Source: an uncultured bacterium (GTDB lineage Bacteria > Bacteroidota > Rhodothermia > Balneolales > DATFMH01). From it: a DNA stretch of 64,000 nucleotides. Both the position numbers and the translations under genes were made by a program. Of the stretch, positions 3,593-52,762 are shown piece by piece. Within the stretch, counting starts at the first letter, position 1, and every line of letters starts with the position of its first letter. The notes under the pieces are model-generated. The model did no database searches. It was not told the DNA's origin and saw nothing but the letters and a program-made list of their open reading frames with translations. The stretch is from NCBI GenBank assembly GCA_963787205.1, contig CAWBCD010000009.1, positions 67,524 through 131,523 on the forward strand. The letters are read 5' to 3'.

Positions 3593-4132
3593 TCAGTTCG
3601 TGCGAATCAGAATCACCCCATTCGCTGCCCGGACGCCATAGATAGAGGCTGAGGCTGCATCCTTTAGCACTTCGATAGATTTGACATTTGAAGGATCGAT
3701 ATACTGTATATCATCCGCACTCGATAAAGGGGTACCGTTCAGCACGATAAGTGGTTCAGAACTCCCGGAGAAACTGTTGGTCATGCCCCTGATCCGGATT
3801 GTGTATCCTGCACCACTCTTCAAAACCATCAGGCCGGACACTCTTCCCTGCAGATATTGATAAATATCACTGTAACCGCTTTTTTGGGGACCATTAGTGT
3901 TTACTGATGAAACGGAACCTGTAATGTTGCTGGACTTCTGGTATCCATAACCTACATCTCTGAGAGTGCCGAGCTTTATGGAATCTTGTTTCTGTTTAAT
4001 TAGCTGCTGTTGGATAGCCTGTATTTTTGCTACTGAAGCAGCATTTTCGTTATTGGTTTTTTGCTTGTCCTGGGCATACAGGGAACCGACGCAAAAAAGA
4101 AACATAAATAACGTAACGAACGCATAACGCAT
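3593..4132 (-). CDS. Secreted stand-alone TonB-dependent-receptor Plug-domain protein (no beta-barrel), paralog A
   Basis: A signal peptide 'MRYAFVTLFMFLFCVGSLYAQ' is followed by a SusC-type plug: 'VGYGYQK..ITGSVSSV...YLQGRVSGL...IRIRG..S....EPLIVLNGTPL....IDPSNVKSIEVLKDAASASIYGVRAANGVILIRTN' and then a stop. Confidence 0.7.
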   Translation of the reverse strand: MRYAFVTLFMFLFCVGSLYAQDKQKTNNENAASVAKIQAIQQQLIKQKQDSIKLGTLRDVGYGYQKSSNITGSVSSVNTNGPQKSGYSDIYQYLQGRVSGLMVLKSGAGYTIRIRGMTNSFSGSSEPLIVLNGTPLSSADDIQYIDPSNVKSIEVLKDAASASIYGVRAANGVILIRTN

Positions 4133-4822: not shown

Positions 4823-5439
4823 GAGATTTCTCCGGGAGAAAAGTTGAAGATAGTTCAGTGATATTGTTCAATATAAAAAAACACGTAATAATTAAAATTA
4901 ATTTCTTTCATGTTAAAACATTATCAGTCTGATTTTAAATCGATTAACATTTTATTACGAAGATATTCTATCCCCTTTGACCTGATTTACAGGCCTCTTG
5001 TTGTAGCTTGTGAAAATTTAGATGCCAATCAGAGTCTTGTACTGCGGACGTCATAAACGGCTAATGTACCATATATGGCCAGGTACGCGTCCCATTAAAT
5101 ATTCAGCCAGGGTACATTGCACAGAGAATCAGGCAAATGCATGCAGCTCCCATGATTACTCTCCAGGAAACGTGATTGCATAAATAGTTGTTAGTGATCA
5201 AATTAGTATACGATGTTATCCTAACATTTTAAATTTTTTGAATATATGCCTTAAATTGTGTAGAAGGGATTGACCGATAATGGGTAATCTTTTCCCATCC
5301 TTTTAAGGGTACATGAGTTCAAATTATGGAGGCACTTGTTTACTCAATAAATTGTTTAAAATGGTATAGATTTGATTAATTCTTTTTATCAACATATTAG
5401 GGTCCTTATCGAGTATCGAATCATCTTATCTGAAATATT

Positions 5440-25055: not shown

Positions 25056-25847
25056 ATGAGAAAGACAACTTTATTATCAATTCTGCTTTTACTGGCACTG
25101 AATGTGTCGGCTCAATCTCAAACTTCAGTCCCGAATACAACGGGTCCATGGGTTCAGCTTTTTAACGGGGAAAATCTTGACGGATGGATACCTAAGTTTG
25201 CAGGATATAAATCCGGTGTGAATTACAAGAATACGTTCCGTGTCGAAGACGGATTGCTGAAGGTGTCCTATGATCAGTACAAGCATTTTGACGGGCAGTT
25301 TGGTCATCTTTTCTATAAGAAGAAGTTCTCAAGCTATATCCTGAGAGTTGTGTACCGTTTTGTGGGAAAGCAGGTGCCGGGTGGTCCGGTTTGGGGATAC
25401 CGTAACAACGGCATCATGATTTTCTGCCAGTCGCCCCAAAGCATGCGTATAGATCAGGCCTATCCGGTTTCCGTAGAAGTGCAGCTGCTGGGCGGCAACG
25501 GGAAGGATAAGCGACCCACAGCCAATGGATGTACGCCAGGTACAAACATTGTGATCGGCGGCAAACTGATAACTCAACACTGCAATCCATCAACCTCCCC
25601 CACATTTAATGGTGATCAGTGGGTTACGGTGACCGTAGAAGTGCATTCAGATTCCCTGATCCGTAATTACGTAAACGGTAAGTCCGTCTTCCAGTTCAGC
25701 AAACCACAGCTTGATCCCGATGATCCGGATGGAAAGCGATTGTTACAGAAAGAGCCTAAAATTCTGAAAGACGGGTATATCTCAATACAGGCGGAAAGTG
25801 CGCCGACTGAGTTTAAGGTGATTGAGATTAAGGAAATCAAGGATTAG
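25056..25847 (+). CDS. DUF1080 (3-keto-disaccharide hydrolase-like) domain protein
   Basis: It has a signal peptide, 'WVQLFNGENLDGW', 'FRVEDGLL' and a C-terminal 'GYISIQAESAPTEFKVIEIKE'. Confidence 0.7.
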   Translation: MRKTTLLSILLLLALNVSAQSQTSVPNTTGPWVQLFNGENLDGWIPKFAGYKSGVNYKNTFRVEDGLLKVSYDQYKHFDGQFGHLFYKKKFSSYILRVVYRFVGKQVPGGPVWGYRNNGIMIFCQSPQSMRIDQAYPVSVEVQLLGGNGKDKRPTANGCTPGTNIVIGGKLITQHCNPSTSPTFNGDQWVTVTVEVHSDSLIRNYVNGKSVFQFSKPQLDPDDPDGKRLLQKEPKILKDGYISIQAESAPTEFKVIEIKEIKD

Positions 25848-25862
25848 AAATTCGAAAATAGA

Positions 25863-25918
25863 AATTAGGATGTCAGGCAGGGGTGATTCGCGAATCACCC
25901 CTGCCTGACATCCTAATT
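25863..25918. repeat. 56-bp perfect palindrome (28-bp arms)
   Basis: AATTAGGATGTCAGGCAGGGGTGATTCG|CGAATCACCCCTGCCTGACATCCTAATT, checked base by base. It lies between convergent genes and could act as a bidirectional terminator. Confidence 0.95.
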
Positions 25919-25934
25919 ATAAAATAGTCCATTG

Positions 25935-26492
25935 CTAGACCCTGCCTTTAGATTCACCGTTGACCAAGGCTGCACCAATGAGATGCGCTACGCGCAGGGG
26001 TTCGGGCATCGTAGATTTTTGGAGCGTGGATCGGATCAGTCTTTTGGCGTCATGTTCCGTCGTACCGGAGAAAGAGGCAAAAATTCCATCATCGATTTCT
26101 ACAGACGATGGATTGTTATTTAAAACGGGCAGCAAATCGGACAACCCTGCTGCTATGAGTGCTGTGTCGAGGGTGCTATTGTGGGTGTTCTGACGAGTGA
26201 CGGTGATCACCGGCAGGTTTAATTCCCGTGTAAGTGTAGGGAGATGCAACAACCCGAGTCCGGCGATGGTGATACCTCCAAAAACGATTCCCTGAAGGGA
26301 GGGTGTCCATCGCAGCTCCCTGATCCAGCCGATCAGGAATCGTGTTGCATCCGGATCGTCAATCTTCATCCTGTTCACGGCCACCCCATCGACCAAAGTG
26401 GCTCCCTCCATCATCACGGCCACGACAGGTACCGACGTGTCTTTTCCCTTCGTAAAGGGAGCATCGTCAATTCCAAGAACATGAGGTCGCAT
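25935..26492 (-). CDS. DUF99 / UPF0215 (endonuclease-V-like fold) family protein
   Basis: 'VLGIDDAPF...VPVVAVMMEG...DGVAV..MKIDDPDAT..L...I......LQGIVFGGITIAG' matches my memory of the mostly archaeal DUF99 family. Confidence 0.6.
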   Translation of the reverse strand: MRPHVLGIDDAPFTKGKDTSVPVVAVMMEGATLVDGVAVNRMKIDDPDATRFLIGWIRELRWTPSLQGIVFGGITIAGLGLLHLPTLTRELNLPVITVTRQNTHNSTLDTALIAAGLSDLLPVLNNNPSSVEIDDGIFASFSGTTEHDAKRLIRSTLQKSTMPEPLRVAHLIGAALVNGESKGRV

Positions 26493-26494
26493 AA

Positions 26495-26515
26495 CAGTAA
26501 TCAGTTAACAGTAAA
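26495..26515. repeat. Heptamer array CAGTAAT CAGTTAA CAGTAAA
   Basis: Three 7-bp units start 2 nt from the DUF99 start codon. Confidence 0.7.
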
Positions 26516-26527
26516 ACAATTAACACG

Positions 26528-26559
26528 ATGTAGGGGTGATTCGCGAATCACCCCTACAT
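26528..26559. repeat. 32-bp perfect palindrome sharing a 24-bp core with 25879-25902
   Basis: ATGTAGGGGTGATTCG|CGAATCACCCCTACAT. The core AGGGGTGATTCGCGAATCACCCCT is identical in both palindromes. Confidence 0.95.
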
Positions 26560-26720
26560 TCAATTCATAAAGGTAACAAGAAATAAAAACCGGGGAACCA
26601 GCATTCTCAAATTATTGTCCCATTAGACTCACCATTAGTAACTTTACCCTGTTGATCGCTGAAAGTTGACTGCCGATAGCTTTTAACACTTAAACACCCT
26701 CACACCTTAACACTTCCCAA

Positions 26721-27455
26721 ATGAATCTCACAGGAAATACCATTTTAATAACCGGTGGCACCTCCGGTATCGGTTTAGCCTTTACAAAAGAATTCCACAG
26801 GCTCGGAAACCAAATTATTATTTGCGGACGCAGAAAGGATCGGTTGAGTGATATTGGAAAACAGTACCCGGGCATTGTCACTAAGGCGTGTGATGTAAGC
26901 AGTGCAAAAGAAAGAGAAGAATTAGCAAAGTGGGCTGTTACTAATTATGATGATCTGAATGTGTTGATTAACAATGCAGGGATTCAATATGCTTTTGATT
27001 TCCAGAGTGCAGTGGATGCAAACAAACTCTATTCAGAAATTGATATCAATTTCAAGGCTCCCGTTCATCTTGCCTCGCTATTTGTGGGCCATCTGAAAAC
27101 AAAAACGCAATCGGCAATCATCAATATTTCTTCCGGACTGGCGTTCGTTCCCATCGCTTTTATGCCGGTATATTGCGCAACCAAGGCTGGTATCCACTCA
27201 TTTACTCTTTCCTTGCGGCATCAATTAAAAGACACCTCTATAAAAGTTTTTGAGATAGCGCCACCATCCGTTGACACGGAACTTGGTCATGATCGCAGAG
27301 CCGATAAGACACAAACACACGGAGGTATGCCGGTTGAGGAGTTTCTTAGAGAGGCTATGGAAGCTTTGGAAAATGATACCTACGAAGCTTTGATCGGTGG
27401 AGCCAAAAACCTGCACGATCAAAATGAAAAATTATTCGCCGCAATGAATCATTGA
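26721..27455 (+). CDS. Short-chain dehydrogenase/reductase (SDR) family oxidoreductase
   Basis: It has the 'ILITGGTSGIGLA' Rossmann motif, 'NNAG' and the 'YCATKAG' catalytic Y-x-x-x-K. Confidence 0.88.
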   Translation: MNLTGNTILITGGTSGIGLAFTKEFHRLGNQIIICGRRKDRLSDIGKQYPGIVTKACDVSSAKEREELAKWAVTNYDDLNVLINNAGIQYAFDFQSAVDANKLYSEIDINFKAPVHLASLFVGHLKTKTQSAIINISSGLAFVPIAFMPVYCATKAGIHSFTLSLRHQLKDTSIKVFEIAPPSVDTELGHDRRADKTQTHGGMPVEEFLREAMEALENDTYEALIGGAKNLHDQNEKLFAAMNH

Positions 27456-27532
27456 TACTTGACAATTCATAGGTAAAAACATCAGGGATTTGATATTGCC
27501 AGGACATGCAACGACTTTTCTGACCCTGACTT

Positions 27533-27605
<73 letters not shown>

Positions 27606-28847
27606 TTAAAACGACCACCGCAGCCTCGCATAAAGCAGGTTCGGTGTGGGGTAGATTTGCTCAATGGCCTTGTTGCGAATAATCTGTGCCAGCAGAAGAA
27701 AATCAATATCCTCGGTTACCGAATAGGTGATTTGCGGAATAATGATAGTCAGCCGGTTGGAGAAACCTTCAATTCCGGATAATCCTACATTAAGAAGAGG
27801 TGTCGCCGGAAACGTTACCTGGGCAAAGCCGGCTGTACGGGTGATGAACAGGTTGTTGGCCTGCAACGTCTCACCAAATAAAGCTTGCGGATTTAGTCTG
27901 GACGGGGCATTTCCGTTATAGAGGAACTCGCCGCTGATATAGAGACCGCTGCTAAAGGCATAGTCGCCCGATGTAGACAATAGCAGGTAGAAATTTTTTG
28001 CAGGATGGGAATATAGCGGGTGATAGATTGAAAACTCTCCCTTAAACCCTGCCTGGCCGATGGAACCGGCCCAGCCACCACCCACAACGGCCTGATCGTG
28101 ATAGTAGCCTCCCAGAAACTGCAGATCATATAATCCTTTATGCGTGCGAATCAGGATTGCTCCAACCGATTGCTTCATATTGTGCCGATCCGGTTTGAAG
28201 GCAAATTCGTACCCGGAGGCAAACCCACTGAAATACTGCAGACGGATGGCATCGGAACCCGGCTTCTCCTCGTAATCGAAGTCCAGATAGGAATAGGCGT
28301 TGAACAGGTCGTTGGGATTCCAAACATATGTTTTCCCCCAGTTGATGCGCTGCCGTCCCACGTCGAGCTCCCATTTTCCGGAATACCAGGTGGCATATAA
28401 ACGGTCGATGGAGGTATTCAGGATGGTCTGTTTGGTATCGATCCAGTTCCAGCTCAGATCCACGAGTCCCTGGTCCTGGGAGATTATTGAACCATACCCG
28501 GGTGTATGCCGAACCGTGTATCCATTAAACAACCGCGTTCTCTCGGCTGCATTGATCTGAAAAGACATATTTGGCTTCCATTGAAAATTAACCCGGTTGT
28601 GAAGCAGGTTGTCATAATGAAGAGTCTGGAAGGAGTTATCAACCTGGAGCATCCCCAATTCTTTGACGTAGCCATTAGCCGTCAGATGGGGAATACGAAA
28701 CTGGCCGTAAGCCAGAAAGGGAACCAACAAAAGCAGGAAAGCTATAACGAAACCCGCCGTGATTTTTCGTGCCTGTGTGGCGATTCTCAAAAGGTAATCT
28801 CTCTTACGTTTAGTTTTATTTGAATAATAGTATAGTCTGAGATTCAT
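27606..28847 (-). CDS. Putative outer-membrane beta-barrel protein (last gene of the ABC operon)
   Basis: It has an N-terminal anchor/signal 'AGFVIAFLLLLVPFLAYGQ', an alternating beta-strand-like sequence rich in Y/G/N, and a C-terminal '...YARLRWSF' aromatic terminus typical of OMPs. Confidence 0.55.
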   Translation of the reverse strand: MNLRLYYYSNKTKRKRDYLLRIATQARKITAGFVIAFLLLLVPFLAYGQFRIPHLTANGYVKELGMLQVDNSFQTLHYDNLLHNRVNFQWKPNMSFQINAAERTRLFNGYTVRHTPGYGSIISQDQGLVDLSWNWIDTKQTILNTSIDRLYATWYSGKWELDVGRQRINWGKTYVWNPNDLFNAYSYLDFDYEEKPGSDAIRLQYFSGFASGYEFAFKPDRHNMKQSVGAILIRTHKGLYDLQFLGGYYHDQAVVGGGWAGSIGQAGFKGEFSIYHPLYSHPAKNFYLLLSTSGDYAFSSGLYISGEFLYNGNAPSRLNPQALFGETLQANNLFITRTAGFAQVTFPATPLLNVGLSGIEGFSNRLTIIIPQITYSVTEDIDFLLLAQIIRNKAIEQIYPTPNLLYARLRWSF

Positions 28848-28922
28848 TGTATTAATTTTATTGTCACAGAAACACGGAGGTAACACGGAGCAAAGTTCTA
28901 TCTATCTCTTGATTTGTGGGCA

Positions 28923-29636
28923 CTATTCACCTATTTCTTTCTTCATAACATCCTGCATCACATCGCTTGCAATATGTCCGTCAACCAAGGTAATGACACG
29001 CAAAGCACGGTCGATCACGCGCTGGTCGTGTGTGGCAAAAATAAAGGTCATGTTTTCTTTGCGGTTCATTTCAGCCATGAGATCCATAAGCTGACCGGTA
29101 GATACCGAATCGAGGTTGGCCGTTGGTTCGTCGGCCAGGATATACCGGGGTTTGGATGCCAGGGCTCGGGCAACGGCAACTCGTTGCTGTTGGCCCCCGG
29201 AAAGCTCTGAGGGCCGATTGTCCATCCGGTCACCGAGCCCTACTGTGGTCAGAAGTTCTTCACTTCGTTGGCGACATTCCTTTTCTGACAGGCCTTGTAA
29301 CCGCATGATAAACTCAACATTTTCGCGTGCCGTAAACACAGGGATCAGGTTATATGATTGGAAGACGAACCCGATGTTGTGCAACCGGAAATCGATGAGT
29401 TTGCTGTCACTCAGGTTGGCCAGGTCGCTGCCGCTGACATGCACGCTGCCCTCATCCGGGCGGTCGAGTCCCCCAAGCATGTTTAACAGTGTCGACTTAC
29501 CCGATCCGGATGGTCCGATGATAGCTGCAAAATCTCCCTGGTTGATACTCATCGTTACATTATTCAGGGCGCGCACAGGGACCTTTGTCTCTTGGTATGT
29601 ACGGGTTAAGTGTTCGGTTTCAATAACTTTTTCCAT
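28923..29636 (-). CDS. ABC transporter ATP-binding protein (MacB/LolD-like)
   Basis: It has Walker A 'GPSGSGKST', the signature '[15 protein letters not shown]' and Walker B 'ILADEPT'. Confidence 0.93.
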
Positions 29637-29647
29637 GAGAAATAATA

Positions 29648-30862
29648 TTACCAGGTTCTTATTGCTTGAATAGGTCTTAGCTTGAGAGCCTTTCGGGCGG
29701 GATAGAATGAAGCCAGCAGGGCGGCGATGATCATCATAACGGCGACGACCGGGTATAGATGGGGATCCATTTCAGGACGTACGACCGAGCTGAATCCATA
29801 CTGTTGTCCATAAGCCAAAAATGCCAGGTCGATCCCGGTGTGATAAGTCAGCCGGATAGTTGCCCATGCTATTCCGAGACCGATGGGTACGCCTGTAAAA
29901 CTGAGCATCATCGTTTCGATGACAATCATACCAAACACGCGAAGTTTACTCATCCCGACAGCCATGAGCATCCCAAGCTCCCGGGTACGTTCCAGGATAG
30001 CCATGAGCATGGTATTTAGTATGGCCAGAATCAGGGCAAAGATGATAATGCCCATAATGATTGAAATCTCGAGGTTCATCTGGTCGTTTATAAGCTGAAA
30101 TTCAGGAGCAACGGTTTCCCATGACTGTATTTCGAGCTTGGGATGTTCTTTCTGCAACCGGGCGGCAACAGCGGATGCAGCCTGGGAGTCATCAAGCCGC
30201 AGGAAAATTTCCTGGATAGCGCCCGGCGCCCCGATCAGACGCTGTAAATCCTGGGCACGCACATAAAGCTGAGTTTCATCCCTGGACTTGTCATCGCTGC
30301 GAAACAGACCGGAAATACGAAAAGCGCCGGCTGCGATCTCATTGTGAACGTCCTGAAAAGTCAGCACGATTTTAGATCCGAGATCAACTTTCAAACGTTT
30401 GGCAAGAGCCTCACCGATGACCACACTATTTTTCTTGTCATCTCCAAAATAACTACCCTGTGTGACGTAATTGTGGATATCGAATACCTGCGGTTCCCGC
30501 TTAGGATCGATTCCACTGATCGTAACTCCATATGAGTTTGTCGCGCTCGAAGCCAGTCCCATCGCAGTAGTGTGAGCGGCGACACCAACTACTTGCGGGT
30601 TCTTCTCAATCGACGAGATCACTTGCTGCGGGTCCGGGACGGTATCGGAAACGAGTTTCTCGTTAAGGTAACCGGGCATATGAATCTGAACATGCCCCAC
30701 ATAATTGTTGAGCTGGTTACGCGTACGCTCACGGATCATGCCATTGTAGAATGCCATGACGAAGAGTCCGGCCCACACGCCCAGGATCACAGCCAGCAAA
30801 ATGACACCGCTGCGAACCGGGTTCCTCCAGATATTTTTCCAACAAAGCTTAATCAGATACAT
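29648..30862 (-). CDS. ABC transporter permease, FtsX/MacB/LolCE-type
   Basis: It has the '[18 protein letters not shown]' N-terminus, a large periplasmic loop, and C-terminal FtsX TM helices. Confidence 0.88.
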
Positions 30863-30922
30863 GGAATGATGTGGTTCAAGGTTATAGAAAATAAGTTCCT
30901 GTGTTTGACTCTAAATCTTTCA

Positions 30923-32161
30923 TTACGGTCGTAATGCCTGCCCCGGATCAAGCCGGTGAGTGTACCAGACCGGGTAGAACGAGAAGATCATCGCCAGGAT
31001 CAGGACTGTCAGGGCCTGATTGTAGAAGATGGATGGGGCCAGTGAGAATGGCAGAATCGGTTCAACGCCGAATTCCAGCATCATTTTGGCCATGTCTCCG
31101 GTGAGTGGTATCGGATGCAAATAAAAATATCCGAGGATTGGGAAGGAAACGGCCAGCCCAACAAGCGTACCGATCATCGCAATCATTACACCTTCAGTAA
31201 GCAATAATCCGCCCAGGCGCAGGCGCGACATGCCGACCGAAAGCATGATGCCCAGTTCTTTGCGTCGCTCTGCTGTCATCATTAGGATCGTGCCTAAGAT
31301 GCCAAATCCAATGATCAGGTACAGGATGAACAAAAAAATTAGCCCACCTCTGTCGTCAGCTTGTATCATTTGGTCCATATCCGGCATTAACTTTTGCCAG
31401 GTCATGACCTCGTATTCCGGTGCGGCTTTTCCATCAGAAGACGACAATTTTTTTCGCAGATCCGAGGCCACCTGAGGACCTTCCTGAGGATGTTCGGTGA
31501 GAATAGCAAGGGCGGTTACGTGGTTGGGCATCGCAAAGAAGAACTGGGACTCATTGATCGGCATGTAGACAAGTGCCCGGTTCATCGTCGGATCAGGCAT
31601 ATGTACAATGCCTGCGACGGGGTATTTACCGGCGGCACTCTGACCATGATATCCCTGCCCGATAAGAACCAACGTATCTCCCGGTGCGAGTTCAAGTTGT
31701 TTCGCCAGTTCATCCCCTATAATGACCGACCTGGCTGTTTCACTGCCCCAGTATTTCCCCTTGATCAGGTAATGTTCCGGATTTCCCAATAATTTTTCTT
31801 TTTGGGGATCAATACCCAGGATATATGCGGCACGGGTTATTTTTTGTCCCGCAGCCAGTGCGTATCCCGAAACTCTCGGTACCCATGTTGTCACGCGCTT
31901 CTCGGAAGCAAGCGCCGACTTCAGCGAATCGGTAACCACAAAGCTGTTATCCAGGGTCTGATCGTCCCAGTATCCATGCTTATGGATCTGCAGGTATCCG
32001 GTGATGTGACCGGCTGTGTTCTCGATCATCATCTCGTACGAACCAAGCTGCATGGATCGGGTCAGAGCTGATAATACAACCGCCAGCAGCACCGAAAACG
32101 CCGTGATAAGCGTTCGCCGCTTATTCCTCCAAATATTTCGCCAGGCTAATTTTAAATACAT
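30923..32161 (-). CDS. ABC transporter permease, FtsX/MacB/LolCE-type (TTG start)
   Basis: 'MYLKLAWRNIWRNKRRT' is homologous to the paralog's N-terminus, which supports the TTG at 32161-32159 as the start. Confidence 0.85.
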   Translation of the reverse strand: MYLKLAWRNIWRNKRRTLITAFSVLLAVVLSALTRSMQLGSYEMMIENTAGHITGYLQIHKHGYWDDQTLDNSFVVTDSLKSALASEKRVTTWVPRVSGYALAAGQKITRAAYILGIDPQKEKLLGNPEHYLIKGKYWGSETARSVIIGDELAKQLELAPGDTLVLIGQGYHGQSAAGKYPVAGIVHMPDPTMNRALVYMPINESQFFFAMPNHVTALAILTEHPQEGPQVASDLRKKLSSSDGKAAPEYEVMTWQKLMPDMDQMIQADDRGGLIFLFILYLIIGFGILGTILMMTAERRKELGIMLSVGMSRLRLGGLLLTEGVMIAMIGTLVGLAVSFPILGYFYLHPIPLTGDMAKMMLEFGVEPILPFSLAPSIFYNQALTVLILAMIFSFYPVWYTHRLDPGQALRP

Positions 32162-32162
32162 A

Positions 32163-32202
32163 TCAGTTAACAGTTAATAGTTAACAGTTAGCAGTAAACA
32201 GT
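32163..32202. repeat. Heptamer array CAGTTAA CAGTTAA TAGTTAA CAGTTAG CAGTAAA CAGTG
   Basis: There are about 5.5 units, beginning 1 nt from the permease start codon. Confidence 0.9.
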
Positions 32203-32274
32203 GTCATTTTTTTTTGTAAGGAATTGATATAAACTCGTTCTTAACAGGAAAAAGCTGTTCATATATGATGAGAG

Positions 32275-32643
32275 ATGATGAAGAATAATTTGTATGATAA
32301 ATCGTACGCCTTTTCGTTGAGTATCATCAGGAATTATCAATTTTTGATTTCTGAAAAACATGAGTACATCCTCTCGCGTCAGTTGTTAAAGTGCGGCACA
32401 TCTATTGGAGCAAATGTTTCAGAAGCAAATGGAGCGATATCAACGGAAGATTTTTCAGCTAAAATTTCAATAGCATACAAAGAATGTCTTGAGACCAAAT
32501 ATTGGTTATCTCTTCTGAAAGATGCCCGATACATTGAACAGTCAACATTCGAAGAACTACATCCTAAAGCCGACGAACTTGCCAAAATCCTCTTCTCGAT
32601 TCTTAAAAAAACACGCATAAACAAGGCCTCCGGTAACTGTTAA
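32275..32643 (+). CDS. Four-helix-bundle protein (23S rRNA intervening-sequence protein family)
   Basis: It is 122 aa. 'YDKSYAFSLSIIRNYQFL...SRQLLKCGTSIGANVSEANGAIS..DF..K..IA.KE..ET.YWL.LL' is the hallmark of this family. It lies on the opposite strand from the surrounding operon. Confidence 0.85.
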   Translation: MMKNNLYDKSYAFSLSIIRNYQFLISEKHEYILSRQLLKCGTSIGANVSEANGAISTEDFSAKISIAYKECLETKYWLSLLKDARYIEQSTFEELHPKADELAKILFSILKKTRINKASGNC

Positions 32644-32667
32644 CTGTTTATTGGTTACTGATCACTG
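32633..32667. repeat. Inverted heptamer array GTAACTG TTAACTG TTTATTG GTTACTG ATCACTG
   Basis: The unit is the reverse complement of the 32163 array. It covers the stop codons of both convergent genes. Confidence 0.85.
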
Positions 32668-33600
32668 TAATCTTTTCATGTTTTGGGTGGAAAAGAAACT
32701 GAGGGGGATGGGTTGATTGAATGTGAGGGAGTGGTACATCAGGATGGTTTTGTTGCCTGGTTTGTCGGTTGGGACCATCTCCATTCGCGCAGGTAATTCC
32801 CGGCCACCCAGATCCTTGATATCCGATGCATTCATGGTATTGACCAGGTTGCCATCTTCATCAAAAAACTCGATCCGCAGCTCCATGTATTCTTTTTGAG
32901 TGATCCATATCAACACCTTTCCCCATACTACGGCTGCATCCGGCTTTGGGATCATCATAATCTTGTAGCATTTGTAACCGGCGATGGTGCTATCTCCAAC
33001 CAGGGAATGGGTGTAATCGGTGACCATCGATGATTCCTTCACCAGGTCATCATTTTTGAAATCGGAGCCCATCCACGACTGCATCATCATCGATGGCGGC
33101 AGCTTGACCACCCGGCTGATGCTCGGTACCCAATTCCATATTTCCGTCTTCCGTTTCAGGAAGGCTGTGCCCTTATCCCGGGGTGGATCTGTAACCAGGA
33201 TCATGGAATATTCGGTACCTTTCGACCAGGCTTTCATATCGACGGTGCGTGACCAGGTCGGCCGTTCAATCTTCATAGTCATGGTAGCTTCGGAACTCTC
33301 GCCACGAACCTTCTGATCGGCTTTTTGAACGATCTCTTTGGCATTCTGGGCCAGGGATTGTGACACGGCATAACCCAGAAGAAAAAGTAACGTCATGAGG
33401 AATGACAGGATAAGTTTCGGTTTTTGGGTTTTGTGTATCGGGTTATGAGTTAAAGTCCACCTTCGAAGGGAGCTGGGGGATGAGCTCAGCGTCTCACCAG
33501 AGATATATTTCTCTACAACTCCAACAAACCCGTTCTGTTGGATCAGGACAATCTGCAACCCGGATCTAATTTCGTTGTTCCAATTTTCCATATGACCCAT
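32662..33600 (-). CDS. LolA-like outer-membrane lipoprotein-sorting family protein
   Basis: 'YKCYKIMMIPKPDAAVVWGKVLIWITQKEYMELRIEFFDEDGNLVNTMNASDIKDLGGRELPARMEMVP' is typical of the LolA_like family. The start is uncertain (TTG 33609, ATG 33600 or 33591), and the hydrophobic signal-like segment lies only ~70 aa in. Confidence 0.7.
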   Translation of the reverse strand: MGHMENWNNEIRSGLQIVLIQQNGFVGVVEKYISGETLSSSPSSLRRWTLTHNPIHKTQKPKLILSFLMTLLFLLGYAVSQSLAQNAKEIVQKADQKVRGESSEATMTMKIERPTWSRTVDMKAWSKGTEYSMILVTDPPRDKGTAFLKRKTEIWNWVPSISRVVKLPPSMMMQSWMGSDFKNDDLVKESSMVTDYTHSLVGDSTIAGYKCYKIMMIPKPDAAVVWGKVLIWITQKEYMELRIEFFDEDGNLVNTMNASDIKDLGGRELPARMEMVPTDKPGNKTILMYHSLTFNQPIPLSFFSTQNMKRLQ

Positions 33601-33611
33601 TGTTTTCAAAG

Positions 33612-34247
33612 CTAATTAGTGTATTGTTGAATAATAGACTCAATAATTTCATCGAGTGGGTACTCCGGCCATGCGACTTCTCCCGGTTCCACTGATTTAG
33701 CCCCGGAATTTTGGACCATATCCAGCATGAGGATATAATCAAGCACGAGTCCATCGAGTTGTGCCCCCAGTTTCCATATTTCGATATCGGGATTGTCGAC
33801 ACCAAGATCTACGAGTAATTCCCGGATCACCTGGAAGTATGTTTGGGTATATTTGAGAAAAATTTTCTCCACCCTGTCGTTTGCCGATATCTGAAAAAAC
33901 ATGCGTATATATAGTTGCCAGAATTTAGGATTGGATTTGACAGAATCCCTGGTTGATTCGAGCATTTGTCGAAAAGCTTTCTCAGGTGATTGCTTTTTGA
34001 GTTTCAGATCATCAAGTGATGGCAGTATGCTGCGGAATCCCTCCAGAATCACCTCTTCCATAAGATGCTCTTTGCTGTCGAAGTAATTGTAGAGCAATCC
34101 CTTGGCAATACCGGCTTCACGTGCAATGGCCGTGATACTGGTAGCCTCGAATCCTTTTTGGCCGAACAGTCGCAATGCCGCGTTAATGATGTCTTTCGTT
34201 CGTTGCTGGCGAATTGCCTCAAATTGTTCCGGTGTACGCGGACTCAT
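33612..34247 (-). CDS. TetR/AcrR family transcriptional regulator
   Basis: The N-terminal HTH is 'AALRLFGQKGFEATSITAIAREAGIAKGLLYNYFDSKE'. Confidence 0.9.
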   Translation of the reverse strand: MSPRTPEQFEAIRQQRTKDIINAALRLFGQKGFEATSITAIAREAGIAKGLLYNYFDSKEHLMEEVILEGFRSILPSLDDLKLKKQSPEKAFRQMLESTRDSVKSNPKFWQLYIRMFFQISANDRVEKIFLKYTQTYFQVIRELLVDLGVDNPDIEIWKLGAQLDGLVLDYILMLDMVQNSGAKSVEPGEVAWPEYPLDEIIESIIQQYTN

Positions 34248-34255
34248 ATCTGCTT

Positions 34256-34912
34256 TTAACTTTCTTTTATTCTCGCTTCAATTACACAACTCGGAAAGGT
34301 GAGTTGTGTGAAACTGCATTTCTGTTCAATTGCAAAACCCGCTTCCTGCAGGAAAGTCTCCAGATGGATAGGACGGCAATGGGTCATAAGACGGGGGAAG
34401 GTCTCGGCGACCCATCCCCAAAAACGGTAAGATGAATTATTACCGGCTTCCATATATGCGAGAATCAATTTTCCGTTGGGTTGGAGCATCGATCGGAATT
34501 CTGATAGTATCGAAATGTATTGGTCAACAGGAAGCAGATCGAGTACATACGAACTGATGATCCTGTCGAAGGATCCGAAACTATCCGGTAAATTGGTTAT
34601 ATCCGCTTGGAGTAACTGTACGTTTTTGTGCTTTCCACATTTATTTCTTGTTTTTTCAAGCATCACCGCCGAGAGATCGATGCCAACATTCCCACCGTTT
34701 TGGTTTTGACCAATGATCCTTGAAAAGAGGCGCCCGGTACCCACTCCTGCCTCCAGCACGTTCTGTCCGTCCCGTATATCCGCCCATTGCAAAATCGTTT
34801 GCAGTGCTTTCTCTTCCGTCAACCGGCTCCAGACATCGTACAACCTGGCCACCCGGCTGTAGAGCTTTTCGATGAGTGAGGGGTCATATGTACGAACAGT
34901 GATTTGATTCAT
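34256..34912 (-). CDS. Class I SAM-dependent methyltransferase
   Basis: It has motif I 'VLEAGVGTGRL' and 'GKLILAY'. It ends 8 nt before the TetR start. Confidence 0.8.
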   Translation of the reverse strand: MNQITVRTYDPSLIEKLYSRVARLYDVWSRLTEEKALQTILQWADIRDGQNVLEAGVGTGRLFSRIIGQNQNGGNVGIDLSAVMLEKTRNKCGKHKNVQLLQADITNLPDSFGSFDRIISSYVLDLLPVDQYISILSEFRSMLQPNGKLILAYMEAGNNSSYRFWGWVAETFPRLMTHCRPIHLETFLQEAGFAIEQKCSFTQLTFPSCVIEARIKES

Positions 34913-52611: not shown

Positions 52612-52641
52612 AGTAGTGGAAGTAGTGAGTAGTGAGTAGTG
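52612..52641. repeat. Heptamer array AGTAGTG (ga) AGTAGTG AGTAGTG AGTAGTG
   Basis: There are four units, one offset by 2 nt, followed by TTGCAAG-TTTGCAAG-TTGTGAC. It lies in the divergent region between the his leader and the aldo/keto reductase gene. Confidence 0.85.
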
Positions 52642-52762
52642 AGACCTGTTGCAAGTTTGCAAGTTGTGACCTATCCCGACGAGACTTCATGAATCTTCTT
52701 TTGCACAAATGTGTTATAGCCACAAACGAATTCAGAATATATTTAAGTAAGCAGAGATAATT

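Follow-up and report, generated by a model that had tools for sequence, protein, structure and literature searches.

What is a small gene, enclosed by short tandem repeats, doing in the middle of a transporter operon? This question is raised by a locus in an uncultured bacterium of the Balneolales (Bacteroidota), found in a 64,000-nucleotide stretch of DNA (contig CAWBCD010000009.1 of GenBank assembly GCA_963787205.1, positions 67,524 to 131,523 of the forward strand; hereafter the window). There, a 122-aa four-helix-bundle protein of the PF05635/TIGR02436 family is encoded on the plus strand (32275-32643) between the LolA-like and FtsX permease genes of a minus-strand operon, with arrays of heptamers in inverted orientation on either side. 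This cassette is one instance of a conserved three-part module, which consists of a forward array of about five units, a PF05635 gene of about 120 aa and a reverse-complement array. We lean towards reading it as a resident pair, a repeat array and its cognate protein, in which the protein, judging from patterns in the sequence, would bind the arrays and act on the expression of array-adjacent genes.

A gene between inverted heptamer arrays

The upstream, 'forward-type' array (32164-32203, plus strand) reads CAGTTAA CAGTTAA TAGTTAA CAGTTAG CAGTAAA CAGTG and is scored by Tandem Repeats Finder (TRF) at 32164-32202 (period 7, 5.6 copies, score 57, consensus CAGTTAA). The downstream, 'reverse-type' array (32633-32667, plus strand) reads GTAACTG TTAACTG TTTATTG GTTACTG ATCACTG, its units being the reverse complement of the upstream unit. 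A repeat finder recovers a perfect 13-nt inverted pair (32164-32176 and 32634-32646), and the longest good register of the two arms extends over 29 nt with 83% complementarity (32162-32190 and 32634-32662). The encoded protein scores well above the cutoffs of both family models (PF05635, E 1e-25, 90.3 bits for a cutoff of 33.8; TIGR02436, 98 bits for a cutoff of 24). The original prediction, which was made from the letters alone and described a four-helix-bundle gene bracketed by inverted heptamer arrays, is therefore borne out in its open reading frame (ORF), its arrays and their inversion, as well as in placing the right array over two convergent stop codons, that of the ORF (32641-32643) and that of the LolA-like gene (32662-32664). 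Two details had to be corrected: the left array begins at 32164 rather than 32163, and the permease gene starts not with a TTG 1 nt away but with an ATG (32159-32161, minus strand) at a distance of 2 nt. For the minus strand, the left array constitutes a (TAACTGn)n leader, its end separated from this ATG by 2 nt.

The module recurs in six or more phyla

How general this arrangement is was assessed in three sets: (i) a genome set, from a scan of one genome per species (80 loci, proteins 60-77% identical to that of the window), (ii) a metagenome set (80 loci, 67 of which have sufficient flank), some organisms of which may also be in the first, and (iii) a distant set of 18 family members with 35-57% identity, on plasmids and one phage contig. 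About 80% of the 161 close homologues have inverted arrays of CAnTnAn units, in six or more phyla, the hosts in the genome set being Balneolales, Cytophagales, Cyanobacteria, Acidobacteriota, Planctomycetota, Omnitrophota, Desulfobacteraceae and Beggiatoaceae. Period-7 arrays flank the gene on both sides in nearly all genome-set loci, with the unit C-A-n-T-n-A-n upstream (sense strand) and its complement downstream. The polarity is plain in the unit counts of the genome loci, where 418 forward units face 150 reverse ones upstream and 434 reverse units face 169 forward ones downstream. When the upstream flank is locally aligned with the reverse-complemented downstream flank, the median score is 40, as against 18 for a direct-repeat control, and the inverted score exceeds this control in 72 of 81 loci. 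At least three in-phase CAnTnAn units are found upstream in 68 and downstream in 72 of the 81 genome loci, for a background elsewhere in those loci of 0.06 arrays per 200 nt per strand, and both arrays can be called in 66/81 genome and 60/80 metagenome loci. The downstream array typically starts at or over the stop codon and, in many cyanobacterial cassettes, the ATG too lies within an array.

The distant paralogues follow the same plan with other words. Period 7 is the best period on both flanks in 17 of the 18, and the units (GTCGGAG, GAGGTCG, GCAATTC, GTAATTC, AAAATTC, AAATCGT/AATCCCC, ATTAGTG, TCCGCTC, AATTAGG) are unlike CAnTnAn, yet matched between the flanks, mostly in inverted orientation (L171 and L184 look direct). 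Forward/reverse array pairs in the loci enclose a PF05635-family gene in 54 cases and are short ORF-less hairpins in about 18; no cargo family other than PF05635 was found within the array pairs of these loci. A phage collection gave two weak matches only, one of which was examined and has no clear arrays. The expectation that other four-helix-bundle genes would likewise be flanked by inverted heptamer arrays is thus strongly upheld across homologues.

Could gene and arrays keep company by coincidence? The arrays would then be generic, slippage-prone intergenic repeats of the kind known as short tandemly repeated repetitive (STRR) or TAACTGA sequences, serving as translation leaders or as stop signals in all frames, and the small gene would merely be prone to land in repeat-rich spacers. 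Solo arrays do occur in the window and in related loci, unit number varies among close relatives, and many unit variants give stops in all three frames (7 not being a multiple of 3). However, arrays are enriched about 14-fold at the flanks of the gene, with a fixed inverted polarity, no other gene family was found enclosed by such pairs, and the sequence of the unit changes with the protein subfamily and its N-terminal motif. An all-frame stop-codon insulator was also considered as a general explanation and rejected, because GTCGGAG-like units are stop-free on both strands. Coincidence is already disfavoured by these observations and we regard it as very improbable.

The solo array of the window (26493-26525, plus strand; TAACAGT AATCAGT TAACAGT AAAACAA TTAACAC) has the same unit type but no four-helix-bundle gene and, on the minus strand, it abuts the ATG of the gene at 25935-26492. 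It belongs to the repeat system of the cassette, not to the cassette.

The protein N-terminus co-varies with the heptamer

Base 3 of the heptamer co-varies with the protein N-terminus, an observation that was replicated. The residues concerned are N4-N5-L6 in the window protein, ahead of a near-invariant Y7. Cassettes of the G type (G at base 3) always have S at -3 or N at -2 from Tyr7 (NNLY, SLVY and similar), whereas A- and T-type cassettes never do (NVTY, NVLY, NIV and similar). This rule agrees with 65/65 loci of the genome set, where it was derived, and, fixed beforehand, with 49 of 50 metagenome loci, the lone exception being a phase-calling artefact. The mutual information that alignment columns share with the base-3 type is highest over residues 2-8 (0.88 at residue 5) and is at most 0.45 beyond the N-terminal residues, which argues against simple clade structure, that is, three old clades. 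On a neighbour-joining tree of the 107-residue core (N-terminus excluded), both characters change 16 times, which is an upper estimate. Switches within clades are seen at L070 (Acidobacteria), L052 (Hymenobacter) and L019, L041, L044 and L045 (Cyanobacteria, Nostocales-type proteins), and between the window cassette (G, NNLY) and L020 (A, NVLY), its nearest relative at this junction. For the subfamily on Nostoc plasmids, the residues at the aligned positions are xSIA with GCAATTC, xTIT with GTAATTC, QHIT with AAAATTC and VGIA with GTCGGAG.

An origin of this co-variation at the DNA level, in which array DNA is carried over into the N-terminal codons, fits some cyanobacteria (AAC AGT TTA, which contains CAGTTTA) but fails for NNLY (AAT AAT TTG) and NVTY, and is rejected in general.

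Pairing of the arms or recognition of a motif?

Inverted arrays may pair, and the original prediction saw in the arms a stem of the RNase III type. Under this explanation, the cassette would be a processing site like those of the intervening sequences (IVS) of 23S rRNA, i.e. an imperfect arm duplex of about 30 bp would be cleaved by RNase III, the cassette RNA would be excised or the operon mRNA split between the LolA-like and permease cistrons, and both heptamer periodicity and protein would be secondary. A long-range duplex is indeed predicted, as anticipated, in the minimum free energy and centroid folds of both strands. The energy of the arm duplex is -31.5 kcal/mol (plus strand) and -24.4 kcal/mol (minus strand), as compared with -12 +/- 3 kcal/mol in shuffled arms (best of 300 shuffles, -26.8), the symmetry of the cassette would give an equal stem in both orientations, and RNase III does cut the homologous IVS stem of Coxiella, heptamers included (PMC4990558). 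However, the fold of the whole region is unremarkable on the strand that matters for the operon (z-score of +0.42 on the minus strand, for -2.99 on the plus strand), and the comparative tests gave the stem no support. Paired arms should favour G-U pairs on the functional strand and complementarity at all unit positions. The 379 arm mismatches in 65 loci comprise 55 sense G-U, 69 antisense G-U and 255 others, with no G-U excess, no strand bias and a chance proportion of transitions. As for the unit positions, the consensus units of the two arms agree almost invariably at position 3 (65/66, null 25), partly at position 5 (49/66, null 37) and near randomly at position 7 (36/66, null 29), which is not the signature of a helix, and mirroring in the order of units exceeds that in shuffled orders only slightly (13 of 1000 shuffles attain the observed value). 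Solo arrays with no partner arm are common, and processing would leave the co-variation with the protein N-terminus unexplained. A stem can therefore form, but that it is what the arms are for seems unlikely to us.

With rigid sharing confined to position 3 and G-U pairs not in excess, the data are better matched by a common motif being recognised than by base pairing. The invariant C1, A2, T4 and A6, together with the shared type-setting base 3, suggest an inverted recognition motif present at both ends.

An old resident of the junction between LolA-like and FtsX genes

The host operon runs on the minus strand from a TetR-family regulator gene at its head (33612-34247) through the LolA-like gene (PF17131; 32662-33609), the stop codon of which lies within the downstream array, to the first FtsX/MacB-type permease gene (30923-32161), the ATG of which is 2 nt from the upstream array, and its remainder encodes a second FtsX permease (29648-30862) and an ABC (ATP-binding cassette) ATPase (28923-29636). 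A cassette occupies the junction between LolA-like and FtsX genes in 30 loci with a LolA match and is absent from it in four. The gene is antisense to the operon, as it had been described for the window, in 20 of these loci, but this orientation is not fixed, as it is sense in the other 10. The identity of the cassette protein to that of the window roughly follows LolA identity, as expected under vertical descent. No recent inversion was found, the closest pairs of opposite orientation having only about 75% LolA identity.

That the cassette is an insertion relative to other Bacteroidota is clear from the Cyclobacteriaceae, where the LolA-like stop is separated from the FtsX start by 12 nt with no cassette, an empty site of the kind that the original prediction had proposed to look for. 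In Gracilimonas mengyeensis (L084), a gap of 97 nt contains no gene; this spacer (3754-3850) displays a short hairpin of heptamer-like units in opposite order (ATGAATG CTAAATG ... CATTCAT ... CATTCAG), which may be the remnant of a lost cassette. Two strains (loci L082 and L083) encode an identical LolA-like protein, and the cassette of L083 is replaced in L082 by an unrelated non-coding insert of 371 nt (4958-5328). It comprises a number of short GC hairpins, an inverted repeat of 47 nt in its interior and, before the permease ATG, a degenerate array (TTAATTACTAATTGATAATTA); an Rfam scan of it returned sub-threshold chance hits only. Orthologous cassettes show dN/dS values of 0.05-0.07 at dS of 0.6-1.0, premature stops are found in 4 of 81 genome copies, and unit number differs between close relatives. 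The four-helix-bundle gene is under strong purifying selection, and in Balneolales the cassette is an old, selected resident of the junction, flipped and occasionally lost.

These observations bear on a further explanation, namely that the cassette is a selfish mobile element whose arrays are terminal inverted repeats and whose protein is a mobility or maintenance factor synapsing both ends. Host recombination or replication would move, invert and delete it, empty array hairpins would be its non-autonomous derivatives, and effects on host genes would be incidental. The following speak for mobility: (i) proteins 60-77% identical are found across Bacteroidota, Cyanobacteria, Acidobacteriota, Planctomycetota, Omnitrophota and Beggiatoaceae, (ii) there are copies on conjugative plasmids, (iii) cassettes are wedged into unrelated operons (hsdS/hsdR, drmD/mmeI, cas2/cas1 and the adaptor/permease pair of RND, or resistance-nodulation-division, systems), (iv) an empty site exists, presence and replacement are polymorphic at identical LolA, and one site is occupied in two orientations, (v) the ORF-less pairs would fit as derivatives, and no cargo gene outside the PF05635 family was found, and (vi) it was already proposed that a repeat-binding protein might itself be a mobile element (MacGregor, 2015; PMC4679880). 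However, a helical bundle of 120 aa has no recognisable catalytic domain, no target-site duplication is obvious at the ends of the window cassette (by eye, not systematic), the cassette is old and largely vertical here, and the dN/dS values over such distances betray long-term selection in place. We consider a purely selfish element doubtful. The earlier suggestion of a mobile cassette insertion thus stands as to the insertion and to a site that is polymorphic at identical LolA, but not as to a recent event.

A candidate repeat-binding protein

What, then, might the protein do? An alignment-based AlphaFold2 model (mean confidence, pLDDT, of 92), used instead of a discarded single-sequence model (pLDDT 58), predicts helices at residues 6-26, 32-52, 57-83 and 89-121, with the co-varying N-terminal residues capping helix 1. 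The protein is predicted to be an up-down four-helix bundle like 2RLD (BT_0352, chains A-E) and 2GSC (Xcc0516, chains A-E), to which Foldseek aligns it with template-modelling (TM) scores of 0.85-0.96 and 0.75-0.85, and it also resembles Avd (4DWL, 8UBE; TM 0.70-0.78, 15-17% identity), the accessory protein of diversity-generating retroelements (DGR). Both S23p and Avd have been described as pentamers (PMC4990558), and within the DGR ribonucleoprotein Avd makes contact with a defined RNA element (bioRxiv 10.1101/2023.10.23.563531). Arrays have five units in 104 of 252 cases, four in 41 and six in 35. Given this five-unit mode and the pentameric relatives, we infer five heptamers per pentamer.

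In the mechanism that we propose, the four-helix-bundle protein would assemble as a pentameric ring, like its solved relatives, and the ring would bind the arrays, as DNA or RNA, in a sequence-specific manner with one subunit per heptamer. Discrimination of the third, variable base of CAnTnAn would fall to the N-cap residues of helix 1 (N4-N5-L6-Y7 in the window protein). Because the cassette is symmetric, a transcript across it would, whatever the orientation, run through a forward array on entry and a reverse array on exit, and the host gene that follows (the FtsX permease in the window) would have a (TAACTGn)n leader right at its start codon. By acting on such leaders or ends, through translational control or as a transcriptional roadblock or insulator, the protein might set its own expression and that of the array-adjacent gene, or it might insulate the cassette; solo arrays at other places in the genome would likewise be targeted. 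An action on leaders is proposed because the position of the leader matches that of the solo TAACTGA repeats reported in Beggiatoaceae. Solo arrays directly before start codons in related loci are reverse-type in 15 cases and forward-type in 5, a bias that agrees with that report (MacGregor, 2015).

Several points weigh against this reading. The co-variation could partly be linkage, since the N-terminal codons adjoin the upstream array and the two may recombine jointly; against this, the downstream arm switches too and, in Balneolales, the array lies 70-130 nt from the N-terminal codons. The core tree is weakly resolved, which is why the number of switches is an upper bound, and the genome and metagenome sets that replicate the base-3 rule may overlap in organisms. 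At some loci (L052, L064, L069), solo arrays differ in type from the cassette, and no arrays could be called in about 15-20% of homologues, among them many from Balneolales, whose units are degenerate and CAGTGTG-like. We found in the literature no binding experiment for any non-DGR member of the PF05635 family, and the S23p protein of Coxiella seems not to be translated (PMC4990558). A resident module of repeat array and cognate binding protein appears to us somewhat more likely than not.

Relation to known systems

The closest parallel is the IVS of 23S rRNA (Coxiella, Leptospira and Xanthomonas-type), in which a gene of the same family lies in the loop between terminal inverted repeats. The link that had been drawn to these elements is apt, as the Coxiella IVS also has heptamers, three to four GACAGAT units, directly upstream of its S23p ORF, with RNase III cutting at the first repeat and strains differing by whole units (PMC4990558). 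The window cassette shares with them arms able to form a long stem around the ORF (29 nt, 83% complementary), but it lies between protein genes of an operon (LolA-like and FtsX) rather than in helix 25 or 45 of 23S rRNA, cassettes of its type occur in both orientations, and its ORF is strongly selected, whereas that of Coxiella is decaying and apparently untranslated.

The heptamers themselves have precedents. Cyanobacterial STRR heptamers were reportedly described by Mazel in 1990. Abundant intergenic direct repeats of TAACTGA, in 2-6 copies and mostly ending about 1 nt before start codons, were found in Beggiatoaceae, Cyanobacteria and a few Bacteroidetes, with S1, Csp or CsrA as candidate binders, no mention of the four-helix-bundle family and no mechanism found for horizontal spread (MacGregor, 2015; PMC4679880). 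The arrays described here are of this family, that is, intergenic tandem 7-nt units (TRF consensus CAGTTAA and TAACTGT), which in the window reach close to a start codon, that of the permease for the left array and that of the gene at 25935-26492 for the solo array. The likeness extends to the sequence (ATAACTG, or CAGTTAT, is the G-type unit here), the taxa, the number of units (2-6), ends 1-2 nt before start codons and variation in steps of 7 nt, and STRR2 (TTGGTCA, as CAATGAC) and STRR3 (CAACAGT, as CAGTCAA) fit CAnTnAn as well. The difference is that those repeats were reported alone, whereas here they form inverted pairs around one gene, with a co-varying product.

DGR Avd has the same fold, arranged as a pentameric barrel, but shares only 15-17% identity with the window protein and is not known to read tandem heptamers. 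The earlier conclusion that the locus is not a DGR is sustained: no YxDD context like that of reverse transcriptases was found in window ORFs of at least 200 aa, no Pfam match to a reverse transcriptase among the called neighbours in the syntenic loci L081-L083, and no pair of template and variable repeats in a local repeat search limited to 32100-32720. By analogy, the PF05635 protein may work in a mode like that of the trp RNA-binding attenuation protein (TRAP), a homo-oligomeric ring with one subunit per tandem unit near a start codon, in which the number of repeats equals that of subunits; TRAP differs in being a ligand-regulated 11-mer of beta-sandwich fold that recognises spaced triplet repeats on RNA. 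Finally, integron cassettes and miniature inverted-repeat transposable elements (MITEs) are likewise small units between genes with imperfect inverted repeats and non-coding derivatives. However, the present cassette has no integrase among its neighbours and arrays on both sides rather than a single 3' attC, no transposase and, by eye, no direct duplication outside the arrays, and its ends are short arrays of tandem units, not unique terminal repeats.

Further features of the locus and of related loci

Alignment of Balneolales cassettes shows a TGTAAGGA box (32215-32222, plus strand) in the 71-nt leader between array and ATG. Across these cassettes, the box precedes the ATG by about 60-75 nt, with a TC(A/T)TA-like element 14-16 nt after it. 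The box is kept in long-leader Balneolales cassettes (L003-L068) and missing where the array abuts the ATG. It may contribute to a promoter belonging to the cassette itself. A scan for sigma-70 promoters and terminators stayed at chance level, with a sole promoter-like site at 32241-32269, and an Rfam scan of 25500-34500 returned no rRNA or other family, only sub-threshold chance hits.

Three other repeats of the window were recorded. Twelve near-perfect copies of a GC-rich heptamer, CTGACCG (27520-27605, TRF score 149), lie between the convergent genes at 26721-27455 (plus strand) and 27606-28886 (minus strand); this array departs from CAnTnAn, and no gene that might be its partner was noticed in the window. 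A palindrome, GGGTGATTCGCGAATCACCC, occurs in two exact copies (25881-25900 and 26534-26553, for 0 expected by chance). Each copy forms the centre of a more extended hairpin, located either immediately past the end of a gene or next to the solo heptamer array, and the palindrome looks like a dispersed element of the repetitive extragenic palindromic (REP) or terminator type. Three perfect copies of AGTAGTG (52621-52643) are intergenic, upstream of a gene starting at about 52764, and the same heptamer forms a 15-copy array in a cyanobacterial locus (L044).

Members at plasmid loci with arrays wedged in operons are L172, L174, L184, L185 and L175. Contexts of insertion include hsdS/hsdR (Monoglobus, a pseudogene), drmD/mmeI (Planktothrix), cas2/cas1 (Anabaena cylindrica), a position next to cas1 (Pseudanabaena) and RND adaptor/RND permease (Chondrinema). 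An association of the '23S rRNA IVP' with CRISPR adaptation modules has been reported (PMC10910872), behind which may be insertions between cas genes, not a functional partnership. In the GTCGGAG subfamily on Nostoc plasmids (L170 and L177), the cassette adjoins xisH/xisI and Tn7-like tnsA genes, and the upstream array contains repeated GGAGG, Shine-Dalgarno-like, right before the start codon.

Significance

To our knowledge, the S23p or '23S rRNA IVS protein' family, for which crystal structures have been available since 2006, has no function outside DGR Avd. Papers that join PF05635, TIGR02436 or S23p with heptamer repeats were searched for and, apart from the Coxiella observation, none came to light, most subscription journals lying outside the reach of the search. 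If our reading is true, it would join two orphans, this family and the tandem heptamers (STRR, 1990; TAACTGA, 2015) that lack a known binder. The identification of a repeat-binding protein, possibly itself a mobile element, has been called for (MacGregor, 2015; PMC4679880), and the present analysis names a candidate, predicts its stoichiometry (5 x 7 nt per pentamer) and the residues that would set its specificity (4-6), and points to natural specificity variants (G, A or T at unit base 3; GCAATTC versus GTAATTC). Should the code hold, the family would offer a compact, naturally diversified scaffold for nucleic-acid recognition. For annotation, the cassette explains the small 'four helix bundle' ORFs that are found wedged in operons in either orientation.

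More tentatively, and with less confidence than we place in the module itself, PF05635 could be a large family whose proteins bind repeats in a sequence-programmable manner, each being a pentameric ring for its own 7-nt code with specificity set by a few N-cap residues, and whose cassettes seed and spread heptamers through genomes. If so, the cassette would be the source of the cyanobacterial STRRs, the TAACTGA leaders of Beggiatoaceae and the heptamers of rRNA IVSs, small regulons, post-transcriptional or insulating, would arise from it, and the occurrence of the same protein in rRNA IVSs and in restriction-modification, CRISPR and transporter operons alike would be accounted for.

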